Of a stretch of 64,000 nucleotides of DNA, positions 6,123-58,140 are shown piece by piece. The stretch covers positions 834-64,833 of the forward strand of contig CACLXG010000002.1 in assembly GCA_902610815.1 (NCBI GenBank), given 5' to 3'. This DNA is from an uncultured Candidatus Actinomarina sp. (GTDB lineage Bacteria > Actinomycetota > Acidimicrobiia > Actinomarinales > Actinomarinaceae). Every line of letters begins with the position of its first letter. Position 1 is the stretch's first letter. Under the pieces are notes generated by a model that was not told where the DNA came from, did not search any database, and saw only the letters and a program-made list of their open reading frames with translations. The position numbers and the translations under genes are program-made.

Positions 6123-6175
6123 TTTTTTCCTTTTATTCGACCATCTTAAATGGATGATTTAAACTTTGTTTATAT

Positions 6176-7168
6176 ATGTCACAAAAAAAATTTATTATAG
6201 ATGCAGATACAGGATCTGACGATGCAGTAGCTATATTAATGGCATTAAGAGACCCAACAGTGGAGGTTTTAGGAATAACACTTGTGTCAGGAAATGTTCC
6301 GCTCCAACAAGGAATTTTAAATACTTTATACACTGCAGAATTATGTGAGGTACCAGTTAATGTTTATGCTGGAGCTGACAAACCCTTAACAAGGAATTAC
6401 ATAGAAGAATATACACTTAAAGATTTCTCAGCACGTGTACGAACACTATCAGGAGATTCAGTCAGCGGACAGTGCGTTCACGGTGTTGATGGAATGGGAG
6501 ATATTGGGATTAAGCCAGAGAATGAAAAATATGAAGAACAAGGTGCAGTAGATTATTTAATTAAGTCTTTTTCGGAATCTCCAAACGAAATAACTTTAGT
6601 TACCCTCGGGCCACTTACAAATATAGCAAACGCAATTAATGAAGACCCAACTATTGTAAATAAAATTGAGCATTGTTACATAATGGGAGGCACTTCCGAT
6701 GGAACAGGAAATGTTTCTGCGGCTGCGGAATATAACATATGGGTTGATCCTGAGGCAGCAAAAATAGTCTTTGATTCTGGACTAGACATCACTATGGTTG
6801 GTTGGGATAATTCATTCAAATATGCAATGTTGAAAGAAAAAGAAATTAAAGATCTTAAATCCTTAAATACAAAATATGCTGATTTCTGTGTAGACATTCA
6901 AAAAACCTTAACAGAACTTACTCATGAAACTTATGGATTTTATGGTTTTGATTTACCTGATCCCATCACAATGGCTATTGCATTAGATAATTCCATTATT
7001 TTAGAGTCACAACAACTCCATGTACTTGTTGACACTAGAGATGGAATAACAAGAGGTCAAACTATTGTAGATTATTTTAATGCTGAGAAGGGCAAACAAA
7101 ACGTGAGGGTTGTTACAAAATCAAATAATAAAGGTTTTTTAAACTTGTTGACTTCTTTAGTAAAGTAA
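6176..7168 (+). CDS. IU-nucleoside hydrolase family protein (paralog 2)
   Basis: IDADTGSDDAVAI, LGPLTNIANAI, AAEYNIWVDPEAAKIVF. Close paralog of 28440..29408. Confidence 0.85.
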   Translation: MSQKKFIIDADTGSDDAVAILMALRDPTVEVLGITLVSGNVPLQQGILNTLYTAELCEVPVNVYAGADKPLTRNYIEEYTLKDFSARVRTLSGDSVSGQCVHGVDGMGDIGIKPENEKYEEQGAVDYLIKSFSESPNEITLVTLGPLTNIANAINEDPTIVNKIEHCYIMGGTSDGTGNVSAAAEYNIWVDPEAAKIVFDSGLDITMVGWDNSFKYAMLKEKEIKDLKSLNTKYADFCVDIQKTLTELTHETYGFYGFDLPDPITMAIALDNSIILESQQLHVLVDTRDGITRGQTIVDYFNAEKGKQNVRVVTKSNNKGFLNLLTSLVK

Positions 7169-7839
7169 TGATTGTACAAATTTATACACTCCAATCTGTG
7201 GAGGAAGCTTTAGAAGTAGAATCTGTAGGTGTTCATAATATTGGATTAGCACCAGCCTCAATAGGACTTCCAGGTGAAATATCATATGAAACAGCTAAGT
7301 CTATTTGTGATGAGGTTCAAAATTCAAAAACAGTAGCACTTTCAGTCTCGAACAATATTGAAGAAATCATAGAGATGGTCATGTTTGTAAAACCTGATAT
7401 TCTTCACTTATGCGGTGAGCCTGGTGAGCTGAATGCCTCAAGAGTAAAAATACTAAGAGATCGCTTAAAAAGCGCTGATAAGGAAATTCCTATTATGCAA
7501 GCTATTTCAGTGGAAGATATGAGTGCTGTGGAATTTGCAAAAGAATATGAGGATGTCTCAGATTACTTTATTCTCGATACCTCTACTTCTCTGGTGAAGG
7601 GGGTTGGCGCTAGTGGTAAAGTTCATGACTGGAATGTTTCAAAAGCAATTGTTGATTCTGTAAAAATTCCAGTTGTTTTGGCAGGAGGTCTATCTCCAGA
7701 AAACGTAAGAGATGCAATAGAAAAAGTTAAGCCTTGGGGCGTTGACTCGTTGACTCATACTAATAAAACTTTAGACGATGGAAATTTTGTTAAAGACATA
7801 ACAAAAGTAAGAGAATTTTTCATAAATGCAACAAGATAA
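7168..7839 (+). CDS. phosphoribosylanthranilate isomerase (TrpF/PRAI)-like TIM-barrel protein, non-canonical active site
   Basis: Aligns by eye to PRAI along its length (ILHLCGE, FILDT, GASGKVHDWN, VLAGGLSPENVRDAI, GVDS). The KICG general-base Cys is QIYT here. Confidence 0.65.
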   Translation: MIVQIYTLQSVEEALEVESVGVHNIGLAPASIGLPGEISYETAKSICDEVQNSKTVALSVSNNIEEIIEMVMFVKPDILHLCGEPGELNASRVKILRDRLKSADKEIPIMQAISVEDMSAVEFAKEYEDVSDYFILDTSTSLVKGVGASGKVHDWNVSKAIVDSVKIPVVLAGGLSPENVRDAIEKVKPWGVDSLTHTNKTLDDGNFVKDITKVREFFINATR

Positions 7840-8776
7840 TATAAGGAAAAAAGTTAATATATTAGGCGATGCCAATGTAGACATGATTATTAATTTATCT
7901 GACAAACAAAACCTTGGAGAACCGTCTTTATTTTCAGGGGGATCATCCGCTAATGTAGCATCCGGATTATCTAAGCTGGGTGTCGAAGTTTCCTTTTTTG
8001 GATCATTAGGTAAAGACATGTACGGAAAATATGTCGTTGATGAGATGAAAGCAGATGGTATTGATGTAAGTAATCTAGAGTTATTAGATAACTACAGTAC
8101 AGCAATGGTTATTGGTGTTGTTGAAGAAAACAGTGAAAGGCATCTTTTTCTTTGGCCACCCAAAGAAGGCGCACACAATCAATACACTTTTGGTGATAAA
8201 TCTAAAGAAGATTTACTTAATTGTGATTGGCTGCATGTATCAGGAATTAGTCTACGTTTTAGCCCTGTAAAAGAGACAATGCTTGAAGCAATGAGATTAT
8301 GTAAAGAAAATAACAAAACAGTTTCCTTTGATCTTAATTTAAGGTCCGAACTCTGGGGATTAAGTGAGAGCTTTAAAGAAACTGTTTTAGAAGCAGTGTC
8401 TCTCTCAACTATTGTATTTGGAAATTTGCATGAAGAGTTTTTGTTATTATTTGATGAAAATGAGGACAATCTTGATAAAAATATTTCAAACAAGCAAATG
8501 TTTATTTGTAGAAATGGAGATAAGGGAGCATTAGGAATTACAAAAAATGATAAAGTTACATCAAATGCTATTCCAATTTCTCCCGTAGATTCAGTTGGCG
8601 CAGGAGATGCTTTTAATTCCGGATTTATATATGCATCATGTAAGGAAAAAGATATGAAAGAGTCTTTAGATACAGGAAATCAAGTAGCTGCATTCAAACT
8701 TTTAGGTTCAGGTGCAAGACACCTTCCAACAAAAGAATTACTTCAAGAGTTTAATGAAAATAACTTAAACGCTTAA
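7826..8776 (+). CDS. PfkB-family carbohydrate/nucleoside kinase
   Basis: GGSSANVASGLSKLG and C-terminal GAGDAFNSGF motifs. Confidence 0.75.
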   Translation: MQQDNIRKKVNILGDANVDMIINLSDKQNLGEPSLFSGGSSANVASGLSKLGVEVSFFGSLGKDMYGKYVVDEMKADGIDVSNLELLDNYSTAMVIGVVEENSERHLFLWPPKEGAHNQYTFGDKSKEDLLNCDWLHVSGISLRFSPVKETMLEAMRLCKENNKTVSFDLNLRSELWGLSESFKETVLEAVSLSTIVFGNLHEEFLLLFDENEDNLDKNISNKQMFICRNGDKGALGITKNDKVTSNAIPISPVDSVGAGDAFNSGFIYASCKEKDMKESLDTGNQVAAFKLLGSGARHLPTKELLQEFNENNLNA

Positions 8777-8819
8777 AAATGCTTTTAAATATTTCATACC
8801 GATATTATTAAATATTTAC

Positions 8820-10097
8820 ATGAGTAAAAAAGTCTATCTTCTCTGGTTTGGCCAAACAGTTTCTTGGACAGGCTCTTCTATGTCTTTCTTCGCAATAGGT
8901 GTATGGATATTCGAAACAACAGGAAAAGCAAGTGCTTTGTCTACAATCTTGTTCACCGTAGCAATAGTGGGTGTAGTTACAGGACCTTTTGGAGGGGTGC
9001 TTGCTGACAGGTTTCCAAGAAAAACATTAATAATAACTTTTGATTTAATTATTGCTGTACTCATGTGTGTTATTGGATATCTTGCACTGAATGAAGCTTT
9101 GACGCTGACCTCACTTATTCCGTTTGCTTTAGCTTTTGGAATTTTTGAAATAGCACACTGGACAACATGGAGTGCTTTTTTAGGCGATGTTGTAAAGAAA
9201 AATGAGGTAACAAAAGTTTCAGCTTTGTTTGAAAGTGCAGAAGCAATCTCTGTTCTTATTGGTCCAATAGGAGGAGCCTTCATTTATTCATTTTTTGGTT
9301 TAACAGGAGTAATTCTTGTTGATGTAATTACTTGTTTATTTGGAATAGCAACAATTACATTATTTAAAAGTAAAAAAATTGAGCCCAAAAGTAACCTGAG
9401 TGTAAAAAATATTTACTTTGATTTAATTGAAGCATACAACTGGTTAAAGAAACAAAAAGGGTTACTTTCATTAGTACTTATTTTGTCAGTATGTAATTTT
9501 CTGTGGGGCTTCACACAAGTACTTATTCCTCCAATGATTTTAAGCTTTGCCGATGCAACTGGTCTAGGAATTGTTGAGTCGAGCGTTGGCCTGGCTTTTC
9601 TTTTTGGCTCAGTTATTTCTCTTCGTTTTGCTGACTGGCTCCAAGGAAATTTAAAAGTAGCTATATATTGTGGAATTTTAGGTGGGCTGGCCTTAATTAT
9701 TGGATCAGTAAGACCAAGTATTTTTCTTCTATGTATAAATGGTGTTATTGCTGGAATTAGCGGAACTGTTCAATATACTGTTTCTTCTGGGGCTTGGTTA
9801 GCTATTACAACTGAAGATATTAGAGGCAGAGCTTTGGCATTAAGGGGAACGATTGCTCAAATGCTACGGCCACTAGGGGTTGTTATTGCAGGACCTTTAG
9901 GAGACTATTTAGAGTTTACGTTTTACCCAAAAAATGTTGATATGTTATATCCACTTGTAGGAACTGGACCTGGAAGGGGGTATGCATTTCTATATTTCCT
10001 TGTAGGGATATTTTATGTAGTCATCTGGGTTTTAAATTTTAATAATAAAAATCTTAAATTCCTTTCAAAGCAGGTAATTGAAATAACAAACAACTAG
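8820..10097 (+). CDS. MFS transporter
   Basis: About 12 TM segments, with a GGVLADRFPRK loop between TM2 and TM3. Confidence 0.7.
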   Translation: MSKKVYLLWFGQTVSWTGSSMSFFAIGVWIFETTGKASALSTILFTVAIVGVVTGPFGGVLADRFPRKTLIITFDLIIAVLMCVIGYLALNEALTLTSLIPFALAFGIFEIAHWTTWSAFLGDVVKKNEVTKVSALFESAEAISVLIGPIGGAFIYSFFGLTGVILVDVITCLFGIATITLFKSKKIEPKSNLSVKNIYFDLIEAYNWLKKQKGLLSLVLILSVCNFLWGFTQVLIPPMILSFADATGLGIVESSVGLAFLFGSVISLRFADWLQGNLKVAIYCGILGGLALIIGSVRPSIFLLCINGVIAGISGTVQYTVSSGAWLAITTEDIRGRALALRGTIAQMLRPLGVVIAGPLGDYLEFTFYPKNVDMLYPLVGTGPGRGYAFLYFLVGIFYVVIWVLNFNNKNLKFLSKQVIEITNN

Positions 10098-18006: not shown

Positions 18007-18429
18007 ATGATTAAAAAAATATATATTGCAGGTCCACTTTTTAATAAACATGAACAGATGTATCTAGAAGATATTGCAAAAGTATTAGAGGGAAATGGTT
18101 ATGATTGTTTTTTGCCACATAGAGACCAAACGGGCATAGACGAATCTGAACTTAAAGGAACGGATATGTCTCAAGAAACAAAAGATAGAATCTTTAAGAA
18201 TGACCTTGATGCACTTGAGGATGCTGATCTAACTGTCGCTTTGATAACTGGGCAAGACATAGATTCAGGCACTTCAGCAGAAATTGGCCACACTTATGCA
18301 AAGCAAAAGCCTGTAATTGCAATTAATGCTAATGAGAGAAGATATAGAAATCTATTTGTCGAGGGCATGTTGACTGTAACTGTAAATAATATAGATGAAA
18401 TAATTCCTGAAATTGAAAAATTAGGCTGA
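18007..18429 (+). CDS. nucleoside 2-deoxyribosyltransferase-like protein
   Basis: IYIAGPLF N-terminus and DSGTSAEIGHTYAKQKPVIAI block. Confidence 0.6.
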   Translation: MIKKIYIAGPLFNKHEQMYLEDIAKVLEGNGYDCFLPHRDQTGIDESELKGTDMSQETKDRIFKNDLDALEDADLTVALITGQDIDSGTSAEIGHTYAKQKPVIAINANERRYRNLFVEGMLTVTVNNIDEIIPEIEKLG

Positions 18430-19665
18430 AACTAAAAGATTTTTAAATCCCCTGATTCCAAAAGCACCAGTTCTTGAAGGCTCTTCTATTAAGCTGAACT
18501 GTTTTTCAAGTATATGGTTGAAGGACACTCCTAGCTCTAATCTTGCCAAATGGGTACCAATACAGAAATGTATACCCCCACCCCAACTACTGTGATCTTT
18601 CATTTCACGCTTGAAGTTTATCTGATCAGGATTTTCGAATACTCTGGGATCTCTATTTGCAGAACCAAGCAGTATTGCAACTTTCGACCCTTTACTGATA
18701 TTGTGTCCACCAATCTCTACATCTTCTAGTGCATATCTCTGAAAAAACTGTAATGGACTATCGTATCTAATTAATTCTTCTACAATGTCATTTATGTCTT
18801 CAGCTTCTTTTTTTATTTCATCAAAAGATTGATCTAGTGTAAGTAGTGCATGAAGTCCGTTTCCAAGTGTGTTAACAGTTGCTTCATGACCTGCGTTTAG
18901 AAGTAAAATAACAGTACAAATAATTTGATCATCAGTGAGATAATTATTGTCTTCAGAAACCTGTGACAACCTTGTTATCATGTCATCTTCTGGATGCTTT
19001 CTTCTTTTATCAAGTAAGTTTTGCGTATACTCAATAAATTGTTTTGCTGCCTCCTCTGCGTTATTAGCATTTTCTGCAGTAACTTCAAAGTCGTACATTT
19101 TTACAATTTTATGTGACCAATCCAGAAATTTTAAATGATCACTTTCAGGCACTCCTAAAAGCTTTCCAATAATGCTTACTGAATAGGGCTGTGCATAATC
19201 TTTTAACATATCGAATTCTGTACCTTTATTTTTTTCAAATAAATCGTTGGATTTTTCTTCCATGTAGGGGACTAATTGTTGAACTGATCTCGGTAAAAAA
19301 GCTTTTGCTACTAAACCACGAAGCTCTTTATGAAGCTGACCTTCAAGATTTAATAATGAAAATTCTTCAGATTTCCAGAAATTGTCATAAGTTGCATATT
19401 TATCAGACCTTTTATACCCAACAAATGTAAGTGGAATGTCTGTTTCTGATAATTCCTCCTCAAAACCTTCAATATGATTAAAAGTTGTACCGAATGTTTT
19501 AGTAGATTGAATAGTTCTAACATCTTCATAACGAGTAAAAAAATAAAGACCATTTATTTCGTCCCAAAAAACAGAAGTGTCTTCTCTAAATTGTCCCATT
19601 ATTTTATATGGATTTTTAATAAATTCCATATCTTCTGTCGGCAGGTGCAACTTTGGAATGCTCAT
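18421..19665 (-). CDS. cytochrome P450
   Basis: Heme loop WGGGIHFCIGTHLA, I-helix LLLNAGHEAT, EELIRY (ExxR). Confidence 0.85.
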   Translation of the reverse strand: MSIPKLHLPTEDMEFIKNPYKIMGQFREDTSVFWDEINGLYFFTRYEDVRTIQSTKTFGTTFNHIEGFEEELSETDIPLTFVGYKRSDKYATYDNFWKSEEFSLLNLEGQLHKELRGLVAKAFLPRSVQQLVPYMEEKSNDLFEKNKGTEFDMLKDYAQPYSVSIIGKLLGVPESDHLKFLDWSHKIVKMYDFEVTAENANNAEEAAKQFIEYTQNLLDKRRKHPEDDMITRLSQVSEDNNYLTDDQIICTVILLLNAGHEATVNTLGNGLHALLTLDQSFDEIKKEAEDINDIVEELIRYDSPLQFFQRYALEDVEIGGHNISKGSKVAILLGSANRDPRVFENPDQINFKREMKDHSSWGGGIHFCIGTHLARLELGVSFNHILEKQFSLIEEPSRTGAFGIRGFKNLLVSA

Positions 19666-19774
19666 AAAATAATTATATTGGCATAGTTATTGAGTTGAAA
19701 CCAAAATTAAAACAATATAAAAAATTAAAGATGAAACTCTTTTATGTATTGTGTAAAATATTTATAATTAGTTT

Positions 19775-19810
19775 CAATGTTTAAAAGGTAACCATTGTTA
19801 AAAAAACCTA
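19775..19810 (+). promoter_or_regulatory. candidate preQ1-I-like riboswitch aptamer (copy A), leader of ecfA1
   Basis: CAATG/CATTG stem. Loop AGGT is complementary to ACCT after a 7-A tract. GUAAC-P1-UUAAAAAAAC resembles class-I preQ1 aptamers. Second copy at 21548. Confidence 0.5.
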
Positions 19811-19830
19811 TTTAAAAAAAAAGAGGTTTT

Positions 19831-20661
19831 GTGTCTGTAGTAAAAATAGAAAATCTTACTGTCCAATATCTTGGTGAAGAAACAAATGCATTGGATGGGG
19901 TCTCTCTTGAAATTCAAAAAGGAGAATTTGTTGCTTTGTTAGGTGCACATGGTGCCGGTAAAACAACACTATGTCTTTCACTAAATGGTATTGTGCCAAA
20001 CATGATTAGTGCAGATATGTATGGGGCAATAGAAGTATTGGGTGAAGTACCTCCCAAGATTCCCGTAAGGCAACTTGCAACTAAAGTTGGTAGCATTTTT
20101 GACAATCCAGAATTTCAAATGAGTCAGCTTACAGTTTTTGAAGAAGTGGCCTTAGGACTCCAAAATTTAGGAGTGGAAAAAACTACAATAGAAAAGAACA
20201 TATCAGAATCGTTAAAACTTGTCGGCCTAGAGGGGTTTGAGGATAGGTCTCCATTCGAAATATCTGGAGGACAACAACAAAGGTTAGCAATGGCTTCCGC
20301 TTTAGCAATGAAGCCGGAAATTTTAATACTAGACGAACCAACATCTAATCTTGATCCAATTGGAAAAGAAGAAGTTTTCTCTGTTACAAGAAGCCTGAAT
20401 CAAGAAGAAGGATTAACTGTAATAATTGCTGAACATGAAGTAGAAGTTATTGCAGAATTTGCCGATACATTAGTCCTCCTAGACGAGGGAAGGATAAACG
20501 AAGTAGGAACTCCACAGGATATATTTCCAAGATTTGTTGATCACCAAGAGGATATTGGTGTAAGGGTTCCTCAAGTTACGGATCTAGCTTCAAGAAAAAC
20601 TCAAAATTTTAATTCAATTCCTGTTACCTTAGATGAGTCAGTTGAGATGTATAAAAAATGA
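19831..20661 (+). CDS. ecfA1: ECF transporter ATPase component A1
   Basis: GTG start after AAGAGG. Walker A GAHGAGKT, signature SGGQQQR, Walker B ILILDEPT. Confidence 0.85.
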   Translation: MSVVKIENLTVQYLGEETNALDGVSLEIQKGEFVALLGAHGAGKTTLCLSLNGIVPNMISADMYGAIEVLGEVPPKIPVRQLATKVGSIFDNPEFQMSQLTVFEEVALGLQNLGVEKTTIEKNISESLKLVGLEGFEDRSPFEISGGQQQRLAMASALAMKPEILILDEPTSNLDPIGKEEVFSVTRSLNQEEGLTVIIAEHEVEVIAEFADTLVLLDEGRINEVGTPQDIFPRFVDHQEDIGVRVPQVTDLASRKTQNFNSIPVTLDESVEMYKK

Positions 20662-21461
20662 CAAAAATAAAAGTATCTAATTTGCAACACAAATATCCAA
20701 ATGGTGTTATTGCTGTAAGTAATGTAAATGTTGAAATTGAACAAGGTGAACAAGTGTCCGTTGTAGGTCAAAACGGATCTGGAAAAACCACATTAGTTAA
20801 ACATTGGAACGGCTTGTTAAAACCCACTCAAGGAAATGTTTTTGTTGGAGAACTAGATACTTTAGATCATTCTGTAAATATTCTTGCAAGAAAAGTAGGT
20901 TATGTATTTCAAAATCCAAACCATCAAATTTTTGCAGCTTCTGTAAGAGATGAGTTAGAATTTGGTTTAATCAATATTGGATTAGATGAGGAGGAAGTAA
21001 ACAGCAGGACTAACCGTATTGCTGAAGAATTTGGATTAGTAGAATATTTAGAGACAAATCCTTACAGGTTAGGATTTTCATTAAGAAAAACGGTTGGAAT
21101 GGCATCAATAATAGCTATGGAGCCAGATGTTGTTGTTCTTGATGAACCAACAACGGGTCAAGATTATCTTGGAATAAAGGCAATTAGAACAGCAATAAAA
21201 AAATTAAAAGATCAAGGCAAAACAGTAATAGTGGTTTCTCATGATATGCCACTTGTTGCAGAAGACACAGACAGGGTTTTAGTAATGTGTGATACAGAAT
21301 TAATTTTTGATGGAACACCATCCAAGCTATTTGCAAGTAAAGAGATATTATCCAAAACAAATCTCCTACCACCACAAATTACTAGTTTTACACAAAAAGT
21401 TGGTTTAAATATTGAAGGCGAAAGCGTGCTATCTGTTGAAGAAGCTGAAAAAGTCCTTTAA
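20658..21461 (+). CDS. ecfA2: ECF transporter ATPase component A2 (degenerate signature motif)
   Basis: Walker A GQNGSGKT, Walker B VVVLDEPT, H-loop VSHD. The LSGGQ position reads LGFSL. Confidence 0.85.
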   Translation: MTKIKVSNLQHKYPNGVIAVSNVNVEIEQGEQVSVVGQNGSGKTTLVKHWNGLLKPTQGNVFVGELDTLDHSVNILARKVGYVFQNPNHQIFAASVRDELEFGLINIGLDEEEVNSRTNRIAEEFGLVEYLETNPYRLGFSLRKTVGMASIIAMEPDVVVLDEPTTGQDYLGIKAIRTAIKKLKDQGKTVIVVSHDMPLVAEDTDRVLVMCDTELIFDGTPSKLFASKEILSKTNLLPPQITSFTQKVGLNIEGESVLSVEEAEKVL

Positions 21462-21547
21462 CCATCTCTTTTAATGAGTTACAACATATTTTGTAAATTT
21501 TAATAAAATAACATGCACGCCATATATTTTGTTTATAGAATAAAATT

Positions 21548-21581
21548 AACAATGTTCGTTGGGATCATTGTTAAAAAACCC
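21548..21581 (+). promoter_or_regulatory. candidate preQ1-I-like riboswitch aptamer (copy B), leader of the S-component operon
   Basis: AACAATG/CATTGTT stem. Loop GGG is complementary to CCC after a 6-A tract. Same layout as copy A with compensatory P2 change. Confidence 0.5.
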
Positions 21582-21584
21582 AAT

Positions 21585-21624
21585 CAATGCTGATAATTAA
21601 TTTATTAGCATTGTAATTTCTTTC
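21585..21624 (+). terminator. putative riboswitch expression-platform terminator
   Basis: 12-bp stem CAATGCTGATAA / TTATTAGCATTG (one G-T pair), 5-nt loop, then TAATTTCTTTC. The 5' arm can instead pair with the aptamer 3' arm CATTG. Confidence 0.45.
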
Positions 21625-21638
21625 GAGGGGGAGATTAG

Positions 21639-22331
21639 ATGAACGAACAAGCCACTCAAGGCGAAAAACTAAGTAGCTCTACTGGCGGTGGAGTTCCATT
21701 AACATATGTTATTGCATTAGTACCTGTTGCTTCTGTTTTGAATGTTATTGGTGGAACTGTCGCTGGAGCTTTAAAGCTACCTATATTCTTGGACATGATT
21801 GGAACAGCAGTTGTTGCTATGACAATAGGTCCTTGGTGGGGAGCATTAGTTGGAGTGATTACAAACCTAACAATGGGCTTTTTAACAGGTCCAGTTTCTA
21901 TTCCATTCGCGGCATGCAACGTAGTTGGTGCTTTGGTATGGGGTTATGGAACAAGATGGGGCTTTGCTAACGATAAACTAAGATTCTTTGGTTTGTCTGT
22001 AGCATCAGCAGTATTTGTATCACTAATGGCAGCACCAATTGTTATATTTGTTTTTGGTGGAGCCACAGGACATGCTTCAGATGTTTTAACAGCTGGATTA
22101 TTAGCAGCTGGAAATGACATGTGGGCAGCAGTGTTTTCAAGTAACATTATTGTTTCTTCAGCTGATAAAATTCTTTCGTCATTCTTGGCGTTAGCAATTA
22201 TAGGAGCATTACCTACAAACTTGCAGGTAACAGGTCCAATAATGAAGGCTGAAAATATGGGCACAGCAGTCTTAATTACAGCAGGTACAGTAGTAGGTGT
22301 AATTCTTACTGTTGTATCAATGAACTTGTAG
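21639..22331 (+). CDS. ECF transporter substrate-specific (S) component
   Basis: 6 TM segments; LKLPIFLDMIGTAVVAMTIGPWWGALVG matches the general S-component pattern. Strong GAGGGGGAG SD. Confidence 0.7.
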   Translation: MNEQATQGEKLSSSTGGGVPLTYVIALVPVASVLNVIGGTVAGALKLPIFLDMIGTAVVAMTIGPWWGALVGVITNLTMGFLTGPVSIPFAACNVVGALVWGYGTRWGFANDKLRFFGLSVASAVFVSLMAAPIVIFVFGGATGHASDVLTAGLLAAGNDMWAAVFSSNIIVSSADKILSSFLALAIIGALPTNLQVTGPIMKAENMGTAVLITAGTVVGVILTVVSMNL

Positions 22332-22344
22332 ATAGGAGGATAGT

Positions 22345-22533
22345 ATGAGAGAAGTAACATCAAAAGATGGTCTTGGTGCTGGTATTATCGGCCTGGGTAT
22401 AATGTATGCAATTTATCCATGGGCATCTTCTGAAATGGCAGGAGACGCAGCCTTTGGTATGTTGTCAGGGTTATGCTTGGTTGCAAGTTTACTCACAGTA
22501 CTTTGTGGGCTAGCTGTCTTAAGAGCAAAATAA
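22345..22533 (+). CDS. small membrane protein
   Basis: 62 aa with 2 TM segments, in-operon between the S component and the phosphorylases. Confidence 0.4.
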   Translation: MREVTSKDGLGAGIIGLGIMYAIYPWASSEMAGDAAFGMLSGLCLVASLLTVLCGLAVLRAK

Positions 22534-22545
22534 GTCCAAAAGTAA

Positions 22546-23289
22546 ATGGACGCTGTTCAAAAAATTGAACAAGTTAAACATTTACCTATAAAATTTGGAG
22601 AAGTCGCCCGGTACGTAATCGTGCCGGGCGATCCCAATAGGGTCCCTGTTATAGCTGAGTCTCTTGAAAATGTAACAAATCAGGGACAAAATAGAGAATT
22701 TAACGCATACAAAGGTACACATAAGGGTATTGAAGTATCTGTTGTTTCAACTGGGGTCGGTTGTCCATCTACAGCGATTGCTGTAGAAGAGTTATCACAC
22801 ATTGGTGCTGAAGTATTTATTAGGATTGGCACATCTGGATCCGTTGACAAATCAGCAAAAAAAGGAGATATTTTTATTGCTACAGCAGCTGTTAGGGACG
22901 ATGGTACATCAAAACAGTACATACCTATAGAGTTTCCGGCTATAGCATCACACAATGTTGTTAGTAATTTAATTAAAGCTTCCGAAAATTTAAATATTGA
23001 TTCAAAAGTCGGAATATGTCAGTCAAAAGACTCTTTTTTTGGAGAAACGGAACCTGAAAGGATGCCTGTTGCACCTTACTTAGATTTTAAATGGAAATCT
23101 TGGCAAAAAGGAAGTGTAGGTGCTTCAGAAATGGAAGCTGCAACACTATTTACAATATCACAAATTAAAAGAATAGAAGCAGGAGCAATTTTAGCAATAG
23201 AGACATCCGATAAAGACACTATAAAGAAGATGACAGAAATAGTTTTAGAGAGTATAACTTATATGGAAAGGGAAAAAAATGTCAGCTAA
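22546..23289 (+). CDS. nucleoside phosphorylase, NP-I (PNP/UDP_1) family, paralog A
   Basis: GVGCPSTAIAVEEL, RIGTSGS, SEMEAATLF blocks typical of Udp/DeoD-type enzymes. Confidence 0.8.
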   Translation: MDAVQKIEQVKHLPIKFGEVARYVIVPGDPNRVPVIAESLENVTNQGQNREFNAYKGTHKGIEVSVVSTGVGCPSTAIAVEELSHIGAEVFIRIGTSGSVDKSAKKGDIFIATAAVRDDGTSKQYIPIEFPAIASHNVVSNLIKASENLNIDSKVGICQSKDSFFGETEPERMPVAPYLDFKWKSWQKGSVGASEMEAATLFTISQIKRIEAGAILAIETSDKDTIKKMTEIVLESITYMEREKNVS

Positions 23290-24070
23290 TGATGAAAAAA
23301 CCAAAGCAGGATTACTAGATGTAGATCTTCAATACCATGTTCAACTTAAAACTGGGGATGTGTCAGATTTTGTAATATTACCTGGTGATCCAGGAAGGGT
23401 CGAGTTCATAGCTGAGCACTTTGACTCAGCTACATTAGTAGCGGATAATAGAGAATACAAAACCATGACAGGTGTATATAAAGGTCGTTCTGTTTCTGTT
23501 ACATCAACCGGAATTGGTTGCCCATCTACAGCGATAGCTGTAGAAGAATTAGCAAACGTAGGTGCAAAAACATTTGTTAGACTTGGAACTTCAGGAGCTA
23601 TGCAAGAATATACAAGAGTAGGAGAAAAAGTTATTGCAACAGGTGCTGTTAGATACGAAGGTACATCAGTGCAATACATGCCTATAGAGTTTCCAGCTGT
23701 GGCTTCGCACGATATGGTTTCTGCACTAATACAATCAGCAAAAGAAGCCGAATTAAATCACCATATTGGGATTGTGCAGTCAAAAGATTCATTCTACGGA
23801 CAACACAATCCGGAAGGAATGCCTATCGCCTCAGAATTGCTTCAAAAATGGGATGCATGGGTTAAAGGAGGTGTTCTTTGCTCAGAAATGGAAGCAGCAA
23901 CATTATTTGTTGTTGGTTCTTATAGAAAATTAAGAACAGGAGCAGTGTTATTAGTTGCTGGAGACCAAGCAAAACAAGAATCTTTAACGAAAGAAGAATA
24001 CAAAGCAAATATGACAGAATCAATTAATATGATACTTGAATCAAGTTTACAAATTGAGGAAGGTTCATAA
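23279..24070 (+). CDS. nucleoside phosphorylase, NP-I family, paralog B
   Basis: GIGCPSTAIAVEEL, RLGTSGA, SEMEAATLF. Overlaps the paralog A stop. Confidence 0.8.
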   Translation: MSANDEKTKAGLLDVDLQYHVQLKTGDVSDFVILPGDPGRVEFIAEHFDSATLVADNREYKTMTGVYKGRSVSVTSTGIGCPSTAIAVEELANVGAKTFVRLGTSGAMQEYTRVGEKVIATGAVRYEGTSVQYMPIEFPAVASHDMVSALIQSAKEAELNHHIGIVQSKDSFYGQHNPEGMPIASELLQKWDAWVKGGVLCSEMEAATLFVVGSYRKLRTGAVLLVAGDQAKQESLTKEEYKANMTESINMILESSLQIEEGS

Positions 24071-24969
24071 TGGCAAGAGTACCAGTTGGAGCATACGTTC
24101 CAGGCGATTCTTTCTTTCACAAAGCTCATCCGTTTGTAAAGTTTTACTGGGTTGGCTCATTTGTAATATTTTGTTTTTTTAACAAAAATCCCTATGTGAA
24201 TTATTCGCTAACTTTAATCGGTTTAGTATTCGTTGTTCTTACAAAAACTTTTCCAAGTTATGTAAGAGCTATGGTTATTTTCTTTCCTGCGGCATTTGCA
24301 ATGATATTTCTTCAATCGATTGTCCCTCCAGCAGTATTCGATAATCCAGAATTATTAGCAGAAATTGGTCCCTTTTCTCTTTATACTGAATCAATTATTT
24401 ACGGGATGCTATTTAGTAGTCGTATTTTATGTATATGTACATGGTCTATATTAATGTTGATGACTTTACACCCAGGAGAGTTATCTTCAGCGCTACAAAA
24501 AGCTCGCGTACCTTATACAGTAAATTTCATGATAACAACAACCTTGCAACTCATTCCTATTCTTCAAAGAGAATTTGGAATTATTTTATCCGCACAAAAA
24601 TCAAGGGCCATGGAAGCTCAGGGATTTAAGGCTTTGTTACCATCAATAATTCCAGTTTTTGCAGGGGCTATAGATCGAGTTTCTCAGCTATCTATGAGTC
24701 TGGAAACAAGAGCTTTTGGTGCTAACAAAGAAAGAACACTATTGAGATATAAAGAGTTTACGACAAAAGAAACAGTATTGTCTATTCTTTCTCTAGCACC
24801 AATTGTTCTTGTATTTTATGGAAGGGCAAACTTTAATGCATTTGTGCCATTAGAAGGGTTTTCTTTATCTCCTTTTGCTGGTTCTTTCATTGTAATTTTT
24901 TGTGGCACAGCTTTTTTATCTATAATTTTCGGTGCAACTTTCGCCATAAGACTTCTTGGTAAGAAGTAG
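24070..24969 (+). CDS. ecfT: ECF transporter transmembrane (T) component, CbiQ family
   Basis: About 6 TM segments with the two coupling-helix Arg motifs (KSRAMEAQGF, LETRAFG). Confidence 0.75.
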   Translation: MARVPVGAYVPGDSFFHKAHPFVKFYWVGSFVIFCFFNKNPYVNYSLTLIGLVFVVLTKTFPSYVRAMVIFFPAAFAMIFLQSIVPPAVFDNPELLAEIGPFSLYTESIIYGMLFSSRILCICTWSILMLMTLHPGELSSALQKARVPYTVNFMITTTLQLIPILQREFGIILSAQKSRAMEAQGFKALLPSIIPVFAGAIDRVSQLSMSLETRAFGANKERTLLRYKEFTTKETVLSILSLAPIVLVFYGRANFNAFVPLEGFSLSPFAGSFIVIFCGTAFLSIIFGATFAIRLLGKK

Positions 24970-24977
24970 TAAACTAA

Positions 24978-26255
24978 TTGACTCAAACAAGCTCTGAATA
25001 TATAAAAGAAAACTTTGTCTTTAATTACACAATGTTTATTTTAGACAGCATTGGTTTTGGTTCTGCTTTTGCATTACTCATACCATTGAGTTACACACCT
25101 GACGTAGCCTACGAAATATCAGGAGTATGGTTTGCTGCTCCGTCCGTAATAATAATATTTTATTTTTTAAATATTTTTGGACAATTTATTTCTTCATCAA
25201 ATAGAAAAAAAGAAGAAGATTCGAAACTTGATGTAATTAAATGGGGAATTTTAGAAAGATTAGGATTTGTTCTGATTTACCTTTCAATAAATTATTTTCT
25301 AGATTCTTCATTTATACTTGCAATTTTTCTTATTACTTATGGAATTTTTGTATATAGCTCTGGGGCAATCCTTCCTGCTTATTTTGATTTAGTTTCTAGA
25401 GTGCTATATAAACATAGGGCAATATTTTTTGCAGCAAACCTTACTACAGGATCATTAGCTGGTTTTTTAGTTTCTAGATATGTTGATTTTAGAATCCAAG
25501 AAAAAGGTTTAGTTGGAGGCTTTTCAGACGGTTTATTGGTAGTTATTGCTATAACTTCATTATCGTTAATTCCTCTAATTTTGATTAGAGAGCCAAAAGG
25601 GATTAGTCAAAATAAGAAAAAATTGAATGTAGTAATAATTAAAAATAAATTAAGAGATTGGTATGAGATATATAAAAACAGTACAGATGTAAAAGCTATT
25701 GCATTATCAAATATTGTTAGTGTAGTTCCTGAATCTATTACTCCGTTTTTTACAATATGGCTAATTAGTTATTACCAAGTAGATGCAACAAAAATTGGGA
25801 TATGGGTTACTTTATTATTAATAAGTCAAAGTTTAGGAAGTTTTATAGTCCCAATTCTTGCTTCAAGACTAGGATTCAAAACTACATATATTTTTGGATT
25901 ATTTTTTCATTTTATAGCAAGTATGCTATTTATATTAAATCCTTTGATATTCCAAAATTTAATATTTATTTTTGCTGGATTGGGTTCTGGAACGTTTGTA
26001 ACATCACAAAGCAATATTTCAGTAGAGATTGGAAAAGTTGGAGACGCAGGTAACACAAATGCAATGCTGACTGCTTTTAGATTACCGGGCCTTATCTTAG
26101 GCCCGTTTATATTTGCTTATTTTGTAAATTTAGGGAATATAATTTTTTTCTTATTTGTATCTTTAATATCATCACTACTTGGTATTTCTATAATGCAATA
26201 TAGAATGAAAAATAAAATATTTCCGCAAGTTAGATTCTGGAGTAAAGACTCTTAA
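24978..26255 (+). CDS. MFS-like polytopic membrane protein
   Basis: About 12 TM segments. TTG start in the track, so the true start is uncertain. Confidence 0.5.
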   Translation: MTQTSSEYIKENFVFNYTMFILDSIGFGSAFALLIPLSYTPDVAYEISGVWFAAPSVIIIFYFLNIFGQFISSSNRKKEEDSKLDVIKWGILERLGFVLIYLSINYFLDSSFILAIFLITYGIFVYSSGAILPAYFDLVSRVLYKHRAIFFAANLTTGSLAGFLVSRYVDFRIQEKGLVGGFSDGLLVVIAITSLSLIPLILIREPKGISQNKKKLNVVIIKNKLRDWYEIYKNSTDVKAIALSNIVSVVPESITPFFTIWLISYYQVDATKIGIWVTLLLISQSLGSFIVPILASRLGFKTTYIFGLFFHFIASMLFILNPLIFQNLIFIFAGLGSGTFVTSQSNISVEIGKVGDAGNTNAMLTAFRLPGLILGPFIFAYFVNLGNIIFFLFVSLISSLLGISIMQYRMKNKIFPQVRFWSKDS

Positions 26256-26524
26256 TTTCTACCTTTATATAAAAAAGCAAGACCAGCAATCAGAAGAATT
26301 ACAGAAAGGTATAAATAAACACCGAATACTGATCCAACTGCTGCAATTGTCACTAACCCAAATCCAGTTCTTTGATCATTGTTATAAGAGGGTAGGTAAT
26401 AAAAAATTTTGTTTAAGATATGATTTTTATCTTTTATCCTTTTTTCATCGATCCAAAATACAATGAAAATAATCACAAATGTTGCTAATAAAATAAGCTG
26501 TTCTCTTAAGGGTAAAACAACCAT
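26252..26524 (-). CDS. small membrane protein
   Basis: 90 aa with 3 hydrophobic segments. Shares 1 nt with the rbsK stop. Confidence 0.4.
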   Translation of the reverse strand: MVVLPLREQLILLATFVIIFIVFWIDEKRIKDKNHILNKIFYYLPSYNNDQRTGFGLVTIAAVGSVFGVYLYLSVILLIAGLAFLYKGRN

Positions 26525-27399
26525 TATATTGAATATGAAGATTGAGTACCAGGTCTAGTCACAGAATCAGAGGCTTTTTCAACACCAATTTTTATTGCAT
26601 CTTCTGTCGTATATCCTGATGCAATTCCGTATGAAAAGGCTCCAACAAAAGCATCTCCAGCACCTGTAGTATCAATAGCATTAACTTTTGGAGCTTTAAT
26701 TTTTTTCACAGAACCTTCTTTACTAACATAAGCAGCTCCTTCTTCGCCGAGTGTAACAATTAAGTTTGATTTTATAGAATTAGAGTACTTAATTAAATTT
26801 GAATCATCAAATGCATTTAATCCTGAAATAGTCTCAAATTCTACCTCATTTGGAATAAACCAATCTGTAGAATCCAAAAGTATTTGTGATGGGATTTTCG
26901 CTGGTGCTGGATTTAAAATTGTTGTGATGCTATTGGTTTTTGCATATTGAAAAACTTTTTCTGTTACTTCAAGTGGAATTTCAAACTGACCAATTATAGC
27001 CTTTAAATCTTCTATTTTTTTTATAGCTTCTATGGCTTCATCACCATTAATTAAATCATTTGCACCAGACACAACAATAATTCTGTTTTGTCCTGAGCTA
27101 TCAACCCATATTGGAGCAACCCCACTTGATCCAAGCACTCTTTGAATGAAGTCAACATTAACGCCGCTTTTCTTAAAATTTTCTATAGTCATATCTGCAT
27201 ATACATCGTCGCCTAAGCAAGTTATCATATATGTTTCAGCACCCATAAGTCCTGCCATAACGGCTTGATTTGCTCCCTTACCACCAAAACCCATTTTGTA
27301 TTCATTTCCAAAAACAGTCTCACCGTCAGATGGAGTGCTATCTACATAAGCAATTTGATCAATATTAGAGCTGCCTACTATACAGATTTTTGAAGCCAT
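26524..27399 (-). CDS. rbsK: ribokinase
   Basis: GGKGANQAVMAG and DTTGAGDAFVGAF. Start moved to MASKICIVGSSN, which removes a divergent overlap with 27449. Confidence 0.8.
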   Translation of the reverse strand: MASKICIVGSSNIDQIAYVDSTPSDGETVFGNEYKMGFGGKGANQAVMAGLMGAETYMITCLGDDVYADMTIENFKKSGVNVDFIQRVLGSSGVAPIWVDSSGQNRIIVVSGANDLINGDEAIEAIKKIEDLKAIIGQFEIPLEVTEKVFQYAKTNSITTILNPAPAKIPSQILLDSTDWFIPNEVEFETISGLNAFDDSNLIKYSNSIKSNLIVTLGEEGAAYVSKEGSVKKIKAPKVNAIDTTGAGDAFVGAFSYGIASGYTTEDAIKIGVEKASDSVTRPGTQSSYSI

Positions 27400-27448
27400 G
27401 AAAGAATTATAAAAATATTTTATTATTTTATCTACTATGATTTGATTT

Positions 27449-28429
27449 ATGGGCATTAATTGGGAATCTAAAGTTTTGAGTTCGGTAGGGAATGTAATTG
27501 ATAATGCTCAACATATATCAGTAAGTGAAAAATATATAGAAACGGTTGCTGATTGGCTAGCTTACGAAGAGTTTGGACTTCCTAAAAACAATAAAACAAA
27601 TAAAGATCCCGATAATTTTATTCGAACGACAATGCTTATTAATACATTAAACTTTGCGTTTACTGATTTTGATACTTCGATTAAGTATGCAATAGAACGA
27701 GATGGACAGACACTTTCAGACAGTGAAGCCATGTTTGCTCAAGTACATGAAGCAATTGATTCTGGAATTAATCTACTTAATGGTGAAGTATTAGAAAAAT
27801 TAACAATTGAAGAACTAGAAAAAATTTTTAAAGGAAATATTGAAATGCCAATGCTTAAAGAACGAGTAGAAATACTAAATGTTGTAGGCACAAAACTTGT
27901 AGATAGCTATGAAGGGGATTGGTTGAATTTTATTAAAAACGGCCCACGAAAACTTTATTCAAATGGTGAGGGGCTAATTGAAAGATTAGTTTTAGAATTT
28001 CCCCGATTTAATGATTCTTCGATTTATTTAGATAAAGAGGTAAATTTCTATAAATTAGCACAATTAGCATTTTGGGGTATTCATGGAGAACTTGCTCACT
28101 CGGATTATTTTAGAATAGAAGACATGGAATCTATGACAGCATTTGCAGACTACATTGTACCGGTTGCCCTTATTGTTATGAAAATTACTCGATATTCAGA
28201 TGAGTTAGAAGAAAAAATTATGAATGGAAAAATGATAGAAAGAGATTCAACTGAAGAAATTGAGATACGTGCAGCTTCGATATATGCAACAGCAAAGCTC
28301 ACTGAGAGTGTGAACAGGAGAAGAAAAGACCTCGAAAGTTTAATAATACCCCAACTTGATTACCGACTTTGGAAGCATTACCACGCAACACACTTTCCTC
28401 ATCATTTAACTTATACAACAATGTATTAA
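27449..28429 (+). CDS. queuosine salvage protein, DUF2419 / Qng1 family
   Basis: Blocks match human QNG1 (C9orf64) as I recall it: TLNFAF, VNFYKLAQL, MTAFADYIVP, EIEIRAAS, LDYRLW, C-terminal PHHLTYTTMY. Confidence 0.7.
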   Translation: MGINWESKVLSSVGNVIDNAQHISVSEKYIETVADWLAYEEFGLPKNNKTNKDPDNFIRTTMLINTLNFAFTDFDTSIKYAIERDGQTLSDSEAMFAQVHEAIDSGINLLNGEVLEKLTIEELEKIFKGNIEMPMLKERVEILNVVGTKLVDSYEGDWLNFIKNGPRKLYSNGEGLIERLVLEFPRFNDSSIYLDKEVNFYKLAQLAFWGIHGELAHSDYFRIEDMESMTAFADYIVPVALIVMKITRYSDELEEKIMNGKMIERDSTEEIEIRAASIYATAKLTESVNRRRKDLESLIIPQLDYRLWKHYHATHFPHHLTYTTMY

Positions 28430-28439
28430 AGTATTAAAT

Positions 28440-29408
28440 ATGATAAAAAGAAAATTTTTTATAGACACCGATACTGCTTCTGATGATGCAGTCGCACTAC
28501 TCATGGCTTTAGAGACACCAGATGTCGAGGTATTAGGTGTGAGTATTGTATCAGGAAATATGCCAGTAGAACAAGGAAGTATCAATGCTCGATACACTAT
28601 TGAGCTATGTAAAAAAGATACACCCGTATATGTGGGCTATGACAAACCAATGTTAAAAAAAAGAGAGCATGCAGACTGGTTCCATGGTCCTGATGGAATG
28701 GGTAATATGAATTACCCTGATCCAAAGTCTACAGAAAATAAATCCGACTATAAAGAAGTGTTAGATAGATTAATTAACCAATATCCAAATGAAATTACCC
28801 TAGTTACACTTGGCCCTTTAACAAATCTGGGACAATTTATATTGGAGTACCCCGAGTCGTATCAAAAAATAAAAGATATATATATTATGGGAGGCGCTTC
28901 AACTACTGTCGGAAATGTCACTCCAGCTGCTGAATACAATATTTGGTGTGACCCAGAAGCAGCAGATATTGTTTTTCAATCAGGTCACCCAGACATAACC
29001 ATGATTGGTTGGGAGCTGTGTCGTGGTGGAGCAAACTTAACAGAGAGTGAAATGGATTTTGTATATAGTTTTAAGACAGCAAAAGGAGATTTCGCAATTG
29101 ATTGTAACAAGCATGCCCTAGATTCGAGCCAAAATTGGCTTGGGGATCCGGGCTTAGGTTTACCTGACCCTGTTGCAATGTCAGTCGCTTTAAATAAAAA
29201 GGTAGTTCTTAAAGCAGGTAGGCATAATGTAAAAATTGTACTGGATGGCCCAGCAAGAGGAATGACTATAGTTGATGAACTAAATGTTGGTGAGAGCGAA
29301 CCTCATATAGATGAAAATTGGTCACACACAACTAAAAATATTAATGTTATTTGGGAAATTGATAATCAGGAGTGGAAAGAAACTCTATATAAAACTCTAA
29401 AAAACTAA
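28440..29408 (+). CDS. IU-nucleoside hydrolase family protein (paralog 3)
   Basis: IDTDTASDDAVAL, LGPLTNLG, AAEYNIWCDPEAADIVF. Confidence 0.85.
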   Translation: MIKRKFFIDTDTASDDAVALLMALETPDVEVLGVSIVSGNMPVEQGSINARYTIELCKKDTPVYVGYDKPMLKKREHADWFHGPDGMGNMNYPDPKSTENKSDYKEVLDRLINQYPNEITLVTLGPLTNLGQFILEYPESYQKIKDIYIMGGASTTVGNVTPAAEYNIWCDPEAADIVFQSGHPDITMIGWELCRGGANLTESEMDFVYSFKTAKGDFAIDCNKHALDSSQNWLGDPGLGLPDPVAMSVALNKKVVLKAGRHNVKIVLDGPARGMTIVDELNVGESEPHIDENWSHTTKNINVIWEIDNQEWKETLYKTLKN

Positions 29409-41218: not shown

Positions 41219-41473
41219 ATGCTTCAAATAAAAGTTTCAACTTGGCAGTACGATGCTCTTTGCAGACAACACAGTAGCAACTTATTCTTCCCACCTGCAA
41301 CTTTTGAAAAAAAAGAAGATCGTGAAAAAAGAGAAGCCAAAGCAAAAGCTGTTTGTAGTGGGTGCCCGGTAAAATTTGAGTGTCTAGAAGAAGCAAATGA
41401 AATTTCCGAACCTTTTGGGGTTTGGGGAGGCCTTAATGAGGTGGAAAGAAAAAGAGAAGCAATCTACACCTAA
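41219..41473 (+). CDS. whiB: WhiB-family transcriptional regulator
   Basis: Four Cys (ALC..., CSGCPVKFEC), GVWGG turn and basic tail. Confidence 0.85.
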   Translation: MLQIKVSTWQYDALCRQHSSNLFFPPATFEKKEDREKREAKAKAVCSGCPVKFECLEEANEISEPFGVWGGLNEVERKREAIYT

Positions 41474-55172: not shown

Positions 55173-55239
55173 ACGAGATTTAATTATATTCACAATTAGT
55201 CGATTAGTTATTAGTTTTAAATAGTTTAAAATATAAGTT

Positions 55240-56082: not shown

Positions 56083-56099
56083 GCAATATAATAAACAAT

Positions 56100-56545: not shown

Positions 56546-56546
56546 C

Positions 56547-58135: not shown

Positions 58136-58140
58136 CTGAA

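Follow-up and report, generated by a model that had tools for sequence, protein, structure and literature searches.

We analyzed a 64,000-nucleotide stretch of DNA from an uncultured Candidatus Actinomarina sp. (GenBank assembly GCA_902610815.1, contig CACLXG010000002.1, positions 834 to 64,833; 32% G+C; hereafter, the window) and found that the two gene groups encoding an energy-coupling factor (ECF) importer, which lie with their neighbors at positions 18,007 to 29,408, are each preceded by a small pseudoknotted RNA. This leader element is a real, conserved structured RNA of the order Actinomarinales, and in clades related to that of the window it is repeated in tandem arrays. Judging from its sequence, the element is very probably related to the preQ1-I riboswitch and very probably works like one. 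Given the company it keeps, we consider salvage of queuosine or another 7-deazapurine nucleoside to be the single most likely, if tentative, reading of the locus, a reading in which we infer both the ligand of the RNA and the substrate of the importer.

The two leaders have the sequence CAATGTT-N-CATTGTTAAAAAA(A)CC in common, which occurs exactly twice in the 64 kb, where none would be expected by chance. A motif scan and a search of the window with a covariance model built from the element copies (R1) restricted the element to these same two leaders. Element 1 (19773..19813, plus strand; R1 score of 49.9 bits, E value of 6.5e-9) precedes ecfA1. Its first helix (P1) is CAAUG/CAUUG, its loop UUUAAAAGGUAAC carries an "AC" specificity motif, loop 3 (L3) is A rich, and the second helix (P2) is AGGU/ACCU. 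Element 2 (21548..21586, plus strand; 39.0 bits, E value of 3.2e-6) precedes the gene for the S component and is a variant of the same pseudoknot; P1 is again CAAUG/CAUUG but can be extended to 9 bp, P2 is GUUGGG/CCCAAU, the short loop UUCGUUGGGAU has a U at the position of the specificity cytosine, and L3 is UUAAAAAA. The fold common to both has a loop that opens with UU and holds AGG(U) or GGG, followed by an A-rich tail and by a CCU or CCC that pairs back to form P2. When leader 2 was folded as a whole, a z-score of -4.4 was obtained. Its U variant also occurs in loci L001 and L002, again together with a shorter loop and a longer P2.

For the comparative analysis, both leaders were taken from all Actinomarinales loci, yielding 30 distinct copies of the element. 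P1 was 91% paired across these copies, as against 20 to 57% when its 3' partner was slid by one to three columns. Two neighboring P1 pairs swap from G-C to A-U on both sides (in 8 and 11 sequences), although these counts represent few independent events, given that the copies come from one order and share the same P1 within a genome. Pairing between loop and tail (P2) averaged 9.8, compared with 6.9 ± 0.5 in loop shuffles, and 0 of 2000 shuffles reached the observed value; P2 was also recovered by RNAalifold. Covariation in P2 was evident within each of three subtypes (AGG/CCU, GGG/CCC, and AAAAGG/CCUUUU in the first; UCA/UGA, CCA/UGG, and GUGAUG/CAUUAC in the second; GGU/ACU, GAU/AUU, and AGU/ACU in the third). 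The pair closing P1 is G-C in 28 copies and G-U in the other 2, TT follows the P1 5' strand directly in at least 90% of copies, both window copies included, and the A-rich L3 is present, its A-tract being strand specific. A cytosine stands before the P1 3' strand in 26 of the 30, as AC (the ecfA1 leader of the window among them), CC, or UC; it is missing from the window's S-gene leader, where AU directly precedes the C of that strand, from L001 and L002, and from the last copy of L100 to L104, which has U there. In 1.49 Mb of sequence searched, R1 matched only leader copies.

The features that define preQ1-I riboswitches are an H-type pseudoknot, a G-C floor atop P1, U6 or UU after the P1 5' strand, an A-rich L3, and a strictly conserved specificity cytosine before the P1 3' strand, the nucleotide ahead of which is U in type I but A in types II and III (PMC11625349). 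Like the members of this class (RF00522, types I to III), the leader element is an H-type pseudoknot of about 35 to 40 nucleotides, with a P1 of 5 to 6 bp closed by a G-C floor, UU after the P1 5' strand, an A-rich L3 followed by a short P2 to the loop, and a cytosine before the P1 3' strand that is preceded by A, as in types II and III, or by U, as in type I. It also resides in the 5' leaders of an ECF S-component operon. We take the GUAAC-P1'-UUAA(A/C)AAAA stretch of leader 1 to be nearly identical to the aptamer of Thermoanaerobacter tengcongensis. Unlike preQ1-I, however, the element has an AU-rich P1, a longer L1, and a "CC" subtype; the 3' strand of its P2 is CCU and lies outside the Shine-Dalgarno sequence; and it comes in U variants at the specificity position and in arrays of abutting aptamers. 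We considered filing the element under RF00522 but dropped the idea, as Rfam at four stringency levels, applied to the window, the leaders, and the relatives, gave no usable preQ1 match; in the window scan, only tRNA reached the gathering score. The sequence-only reading, an earlier annotation made from the letters alone, had described both ECF sub-operons as having preQ1-I-like leaders. That description holds insofar as the leaders are real, conserved, and structured and have preQ1-I architecture, although Rfam does not recognize them and the S-gene copy is without the specificity cytosine.

The newest observation of this analysis is the tandem arrangement of the element, when set against a 2022 survey of tandem riboswitches in which preQ1-I, -II, and -III are listed as classes without tandem examples (PMC9481103, Table 3). 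The clade of the window has one copy per leader. Its sister clades have one copy in the ecfA1 leader and more in the S-gene leader: two in L081, L087, L088, and L091 to L104; three in L005 (L005:117-227) and L085; four in L009 (L009:9823-9964) and L082 (L082:5820-5962); and five in L083 (L083:5783-5966) and L086 (L086:5783-5966). The copies abut, such that the P2 3' strand of one runs into the P1 5' strand of the next, and they are ordered by subtype, with "AC" first, "CC" in the middle, and "UC" last. Arrays were found in independent ENA, JGI, and NCBI assemblies.

Between aptamer 2 and the S gene is a terminator-like hairpin with a 12-bp stem and a U-rich tail (21585..21623, plus strand), and in L003 and L011 a hairpin and U-tract of different sequence are found at the same place. 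A hairpin and U-rich tract in this position would fit transcription attenuation. Promoter-like hexamers are found 5' of each aptamer (ATGAAA-17-TAAAAT at 19731..19759, plus strand, just 5' of aptamer 1, from a consensus scan only); these are weak evidence, as such sites are no more frequent than in shuffled sequences. The AAAACCU tail of leader 1 is, in the window clade, the complement of AGGUUUU in the Shine-Dalgarno region, which would make the ecfA1 leader an ON switch. We set this model aside, since the complementarity is not kept in other clades and RNAalifold finds P2 only. By analogy with known preQ1 switches, we infer that regulation would be by repression.

Two further sequence boxes were noticed in these leaders. 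UUUCU(C)CUUCGAG stands directly before the Shine-Dalgarno sequence in the window clade (21614-21634) and upstream of the whole array in the tandem-array clades (L081 at about 5860-5880, with equivalents in L005, L009, and L083). In the latter clades, pairing of its CUCCUUC with the GAAGGGG of the Shine-Dalgarno sequence, some distance away, is conceivable; neither partner varies, and hence there is no covariation. Separately, in Anaerolineae and other Chloroflexota (many of L012 to L035), a GGAGGTG box is found about 65 to 185 nucleotides 5' of the S gene, with no conserved open reading frame (ORF) after it and no Rfam match. The absence of a conserved ORF led us to drop a leader peptide as its explanation; the box may act as a decoy for ribosome binding or belong to an unrelated RNA with a regulatory function.

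It is conceivable that the leader elements do not sense a ligand at all but are sites for an RNA- or DNA-binding regulator, or constitutive pseudoknots that stabilize the mRNA or modulate its translation, and that local duplication has repeated them. In keeping with this, they are limited to part of one order, in which some members have the same genes but not the element; the covariation goes back to few independent events, with P1 the same within a genome; and the ecfA1 leaders showed no alternative (switching) helix that is conserved. The window's S-gene copy, moreover, combines a very stable 9-bp P1 and a 6-bp P2 with the loss of the specificity cytosine. We nonetheless think this explanation distinctly unlikely. 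Complementarity has been kept through two-sided changes in P1 and in P2, which is not palindromic; the A-tract is strand specific; the window clade has a terminator-like hairpin after the element; and the position-for-position match to the ligand contacts of preQ1-I would otherwise be hard to explain.

Gene identities were assigned by Pfam and NCBIfam profile searches of the window proteins, with matches to solved structures taken from the PDB. Every gene named by the sequence-only reading was confirmed at its position, and three come in addition to its list: a cytochrome P450, a membrane ORF of 62 amino acids (aa), and one of 90 aa. The first importer group, on the plus strand, comprises the ATPase genes ecfA1 (19831..20661, with a GTG start; PF00005; TIGR04520, 223 bits) and ecfA2 (20658..21461; PF00005; TIGR04521, 232 bits). 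The second, on the same strand, opens with the 230-aa S component (21639..22331), a relative of the NCBIfam "CD3073 family" that scores below the cutoffs of that model (NF045596; 114.7 bits, cutoff of 180) and of PF12822 (26.4 bits, cutoff of 30.7). It continues with the hydrophobic 62-aa membrane ORF (22345..22533, known from translation) directly 3' of the S gene, two phosphorylases of the NP-I family (22546..23289 and 23279..24070), the CbiQ-family T component ecfT (24070..24969; PF02361, 86.5 bits), and a membrane protein of the major facilitator superfamily (MFS) type (24978..26255; PF07690, 37.8 bits; 407 aa as called in relatives). Adjoining these are a probable ribokinase of the PfkB family (26524..27456 as the longest ORF, minus strand), a Qng1-like (DUF2419/Q_salvage) N-glycosidase of a divergent subfamily (27449..28429, plus strand; PF10343, 183.4 bits, cutoff of 25), and an inosine-uridine (IU)-type nucleoside hydrolase that is RihC/RihA-like (28440..29408, plus strand; IU_nuc_hydro PF01156, 274.8 bits). 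The 414-aa P450 (18421..19665, minus strand; PF00067, 102.6 bits; best PDB match, 8yhn with 258 bits) is divergent from ecfA1.

This gene complement is a conserved neighborhood in two phyla, Actinomycetota (in the Actinomarinales) and Chloroflexota. The sequence-only reading had suggested comparing the neighborhood across related genomes, and we found the gene order to be identical in more than 30 independent Actinomarinales contigs. The S component of the window is 100% identical to proteins from metagenome-assembled genomes (MAGs) and single-amplified genomes of Candidatus Actinomarina. It had 694 homologues in a protein search, and a profile scan of reference genomes returned 160 relatives, distributed among Actinomycetota, Chloroflexota, Bacillota, and Rhizobiaceae; the loci of 80 of them were retained for analysis. 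A recurrent unit, consisting of the S gene, a 70- to 80-aa ORF, two ecfA genes, ecfT, two or three PNP_UDP_1 genes, and often an MFS gene, was found in Chloroflexota, Microbacteriaceae, Rhizobiaceae, and Bacillota, and in many other phyla an MFS gene closes the homologous operon. In a subset of Chloroflexota the resemblance to the window extends further: in 10 loci (L033, L034, L038, L045, L046, L055, L057, and L078 to L080; one order is S-A-A-T-P450-ribokinase) the ECF genes are followed, on their own strand, by a P450 that is 34 to 37% identical to that of the window, a ribokinase 45 to 52% identical to the window's is present in 12 loci, and a Qng1-like gene 48 to 50% identical is present in 4. 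In L029, two PfkB genes diverge from a Qng1-like-S-A-A-T-PNP-PNP-MFS series, in which the Qng1-like gene is co-operonic with the S component.

A hydrophobic ORF of 62 to 80 aa without a family match accompanies the S-component family across phyla, usually right after the S gene (22345-22533 in the window, L105:10727-10939, L107:10736-10978, and L109:11746-11988, for example), and may encode an accessory membrane subunit.

On the reading that we prefer, namely, salvage of queuosine or a related 7-deazapurine nucleoside, the importer would be a dedicated one, made from two transcription units (ecfA1-ecfA2 and S-62-aa peptide-two uridine-phosphorylase-family paralogues-ecfT-MFS), and would bring in a ribonucleoside, the base of which would be freed by phosphorolysis. 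The adjoining ribokinase, Qng1-like nucleotide or nucleoside N-glycosidase, and IU hydrolase would likewise free the base and recycle the ribose. The pseudoknot before both units in Actinomarinales, as a divergent relative of preQ1-I, would bind a guanine-faced 7-deazapurine base made by the pathway (prequeuosine 1 [preQ1] or a close analogue) and adjust expression of the importer. We favor this reading because three components, a preQ1-I-like sensor, a PF10343 enzyme, and an ECF importer of the PF12822 type, point the same way; the link to the queuosine family itself is drawn because of the Qng1-like gene and, in Actinomarinales only, the RNA.

There is precedent for such an arrangement. S components of the PF12822 type (QrtT) are known importers of queuosine precursors and are sometimes found behind preQ1 riboswitches (PMC5372724, PMC11130926, PMC11477304); the first two of these sources bear out the precedent of preQ1 riboswitches and ECF queuosine transporters that the sequence-only reading had cited. 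A riboswitch, an ECF S component, and a nucleoside hydrolase are themselves found together in the queK-qrtT-queL operon of Clostridioides difficile (PMC11477304). In this regard, the window resembles C. difficile in having a preQ1-I-type leader before an operon that joins an ECF S component to nucleoside-cleaving enzymes, with an IU-family hydrolase nearby. Unlike that operon, however, the window has a dedicated ECF module (with its own A1, A2, and T) and no radical S-adenosylmethionine (SAM) enzyme QueL; it adds two uridine-phosphorylase-like genes, an MFS protein, and a small membrane peptide, and its IU hydrolase lies outside the leader-controlled units and is placed at the family level only.

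The Qng1-like protein could be aligned from end to end with the structures 7U07 and 7UK3. It is a full-length PF10343 protein, as are the queuosine-5'-monophosphate N-glycosidases of Sphaerobacter thermophilus (StQng1, 7U07) and humans (QNG1, C9orf64), and it is 29% identical to StQng1 over the full length. Taking the residue roles from the study of StQng1 (PMC9881137) and comparing locus translations of the window protein and 8 relatives, we found that the subfamily keeps the helix-hairpin-helix catalytic residues D231 (the nucleophile) and K199, D298 and W302 at the face of the base, a stacking aliphatic residue at position 203, F75 and Y232, which stack on the ribose, and the Tyr at the C terminus. 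In contrast, the residues that in StQng1 form the cyclopentenediol pocket and the proton relay have been replaced. Across the ECF-linked Actinomarinales and Chloroflexota proteins, W48 is N, S, or G; H53 is K or D; Y93 is S or A; W94 is E or D; D69 is N or S; and D207 is G or S. By these residue patterns, the Qng1-like proteins are a distinct subfamily, whose enzyme probably recognizes a guanine-faced base with a different 7-substituent or none. A protein search with the Qng1 homologue returned only Actinomarinales-like sequences. The sequence-only reading had named a bacterial Qng1 as part of a gene complement that it did not recognize; a bacterial Qng1 as such is not new, StQng1 having already been characterized (PMC9881137).

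A number of our findings weigh against queuosine-type salvage. With respect to the RNA, none of the Rfam preQ1 models gave a match in the region at an E value of 10 or less, or on either leader alone with the laxest filters, and the gathering score of RF00522 (39 bits) was not attained, the best score anywhere being 11.9 bits, on a relative. The aptamer before the S gene of the window has U at the specificity position, the Actinomarinales loci L004, L006 to L008, and L010 have the same genes without the element, and neither the Qng1-like gene nor the IU hydrolase is behind any leader element. No tgt or que genes were found in the 64-kb window, and none is near the homologous operons in other phyla. 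Rfam detected no known riboswitch in 19 homologous loci of other phyla, on which ground we also rejected the idea that the core module is generally preQ1 regulated, and most of the 80 genomic relatives of the S component have neither a preQ1-type leader nor a Qng1-like neighbor. As for the importer, the S component is of the PF12822 type, albeit below the cutoff; it has no match to QueT (PF06177), and no named family reaches its cutoff. Set beside the QrtT and QueT systems, it matches only the uncharacterized "CD3073 family," and there, too, below the cutoff.

The enzymes, too, have features of ordinary nucleoside metabolism. 7-Deazapurine nucleosides are generally poor substrates for phosphorylases, and both phosphorylases are uridine phosphorylase-like, 51% identical to each other, and closest to the enzyme of Streptococcus pyogenes (3qpb, the best PDB match of both). 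Phosphorylase 2 (PNP_UDP_1; 258.8 bits to 3qpb) exceeds the uridine-phosphorylase equivalog cutoff of TIGR01718 (295.2 versus 280.3 bits) and has the base-site motif FYGQH of the S. pyogenes enzyme. Phosphorylase 1 (PNP_UDP_1 PF01048, 126.8 bits) falls short of the same cutoff, with 241.9 bits, and has FFGET instead, a divergence that suggests another base preference or a heteromer. Unlike the S. pyogenes uridine phosphorylase (3QPB; TIGR01718), the genes of the window type lie within an ECF operon, where they are conserved as a pair or, in some phyla, as a triplet. The top PDB matches of the kinase are all ribokinases, with about 40% identity; it has the motifs GSSNIDQ, GGKGANQA, PNEVE, and TGAGDAF, and it scores 290.6 bits with TIGR02152 (cutoff of 299.65). 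Its start lies about 20 codons later in relatives (290 to 291 aa), which removes the overlap with the Qng1-like gene. We had entertained this PfkB kinase as the missing queuosine 5'-kinase that would feed Qng1, a candidate downgraded because of its full set of ribokinase motifs and its similarity to solved ribokinases. The IU hydrolase is best matched by the RihC, RihA, and UriH models, all below their cutoffs (177 bits for RihC), and in the PDB by Sulfolobus IunH-2. Finally, the side-chain pocket residues W48, Y93, W94, W299, and H53 of StQng1 are N, S, E, Y, and K in the window protein, and the proton-relay residues D69 and D207 are N and G. Of the queuosine-salvage enzyme set envisaged by the sequence-only reading, then, what stands is the PF10343 gene as a conserved neighbor of the ECF genes in two phyla; the phosphorylases, the kinase, and the hydrolase look like their counterparts in ordinary pathways, and the Qng1-like protein is without the queuine side-chain pocket.

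Such features are what one would expect if the locus served general nucleoside scavenging, an account that we regard as possible and deserving of serious attention, though less than probable. The ECF system would then import uridine and/or guanosine; the phosphorylases, IU hydrolases, and ribokinase would feed the central metabolism of a streamlined marine heterotroph; the leader element would have drifted to sense guanine or a common purine; and the Qng1-like protein would be a guanine-nucleotide glycosidase unrelated to queuosine. The equivalog-level score of phosphorylase 2, the proximity of both paralogues to the S. pyogenes enzyme, and the canonical ribokinase motifs all favor it, as do the polarity of the Qng1-like pocket, in which a base lacking the queuine side chain could be accommodated, the failure of Rfam to class the RNA as preQ1, and the wide distribution of the core module without queuosine genes or riboswitches. 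It is strengthened further by a second nucleoside cluster at 5157-10097, about 10 kb upstream of the locus, before which there is no riboswitch-like element and whose existence is a further point against queuosine-type salvage. This cluster contains two IU-type nucleoside hydrolases (5157-6122, minus strand, and 6176-7168, plus strand), a PRAI-like gene (7168-7839), a generic PfkB sugar kinase that is 23% identical to the ribokinase (7826-8776), and an MFS exporter-like gene (8820-10097), so that a 25-kb part of the window contains three IU hydrolases, two PfkB kinases, and two MFS genes. Against scavenging, ECF transporters typically serve micronutrients and not bulk carbon sources. In addition, the Qng1-like gene is co-operonic with the S component in L029, and the element has conserved the floor G, the contact for the aminomethyl group. 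All natural preQ1-I types described so far bind preQ1 (PMC11625349), and queuine release is the one function characterized for PF10343 (PMC9881137). The salvage of queuosine proposed by the sequence-only reading therefore survives in part: the leaders, the PF10343 neighbor, and the S-component precedent speak for it, whereas the second hydrolase cluster and the occurrence of the core module in many genomes without queuosine genes or riboswitch do not.

A 140-aa nucleoside 2-deoxyribosyltransferase-like gene (18007..18429, plus strand; Nuc_deoxyrib_tr PF05014, 79.5 bits; weak PDB matches to the N-deoxyribosyltransferases 7o62 and 6evs, with E values of about 1e-10) raises another possibility, in which the source of salvaged 7-deazaguanines would be modified DNA (dPreQ0 or dPreQ1 deoxynucleosides of phages, for example) and not queuosine derived from tRNA. 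Small or charged 7-substituents would then be handled by the deoxyribosyltransferase-like enzyme and by the remodeled pocket of the Qng1-like protein. The gene is a conserved flank, kept at the same position in Actinomarinales loci, the pocket has Glu/Asp and Ser instead of Trp and Tyr, and the aptamer resembles a sensor of preQ1 rather than of queuine. However, almost all non-Actinomarinales loci lack the gene, and the ribokinase and the ribonucleoside-type hydrolases indicate ribosides; we consider this origin of the base very unlikely.

One more elaborate version of queuosine-type salvage would give the P450 a part. Abundant marine Actinomarinales and some Chloroflexota might have an oxygen-compatible route in which an ECF system imports the nucleoside, the phosphorylase pair and/or the remodeled Qng1-like enzyme releases the base, and the P450 trims queuine to preQ1, as a functional analogue of the radical-SAM lyase QueL; the product would be read by a new preQ1-I lineage in the form of cooperative arrays of up to five aptamers with C-to-U variants. 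The whole of this scheme strikes us as rather improbable, and the role given to the P450, oxidative N-dealkylation of queuine, is speculative.

A riboswitch-gated ECF importer for queuosine precursors is an already known kind of system, as is a bacterial Qng1. What is new is an unrecognized aptamer lineage with tandem arrays and specificity-base variants; a remodeled Qng1 subfamily, as delineated by alignment; and the conserved linkage of an ECF system with a pair of phosphorylases and an MFS protein, to which a P450 is added in two phyla. Should the leaders bind preQ1 or a related compound, the smallest known riboswitch class would reach into marine Actinomycetota, in a form that escapes current models, and the arrays would be the first for preQ1, with two to five aptamers on one expression platform and natural variants of the specificity base. 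They would then bear on how very small aptamers reach steep responses. For the supply of queuosine to organisms without the known transporters and lyases, the ECF system, the phosphorylases, the divergent Qng1, and the P450 would provide concrete candidates. If the locus instead serves ordinary scavenging, it still defines a widespread uncharacterized module (ECF, small peptide, two or three phosphorylases, and MFS), and PF10343 holds a subfamily that probably does not act on queuosine.

Several minor observations were also made. The 90-aa membrane ORF downstream of the ribokinase gene (26252..26524, minus strand), which has no family match, is called in nearly all Actinomarinales loci. A literature search returned nothing relevant on CD3073, QrtTUVW, a queuosine kinase, or Actinomarina together with queuosine. 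Some of the MAG contigs are probably misbinned or mislabeled (L005, PAEE01000051; L010, CAZKIP010000031; L018/L109, JBLNCC010000076; and L028); they include Actinomarinales-type loci tagged as Methanobacteriota or Methanosarcinales archaea and a "Betaproteobacteria" contig with genes for SASP spore proteins. Elsewhere in the window, several tRNA genes are located at 51596-58213, and selenocysteine machinery, in the form of a selB-like elongation factor and selA, is encoded at 41470-44441 in what is a streamlined genome.

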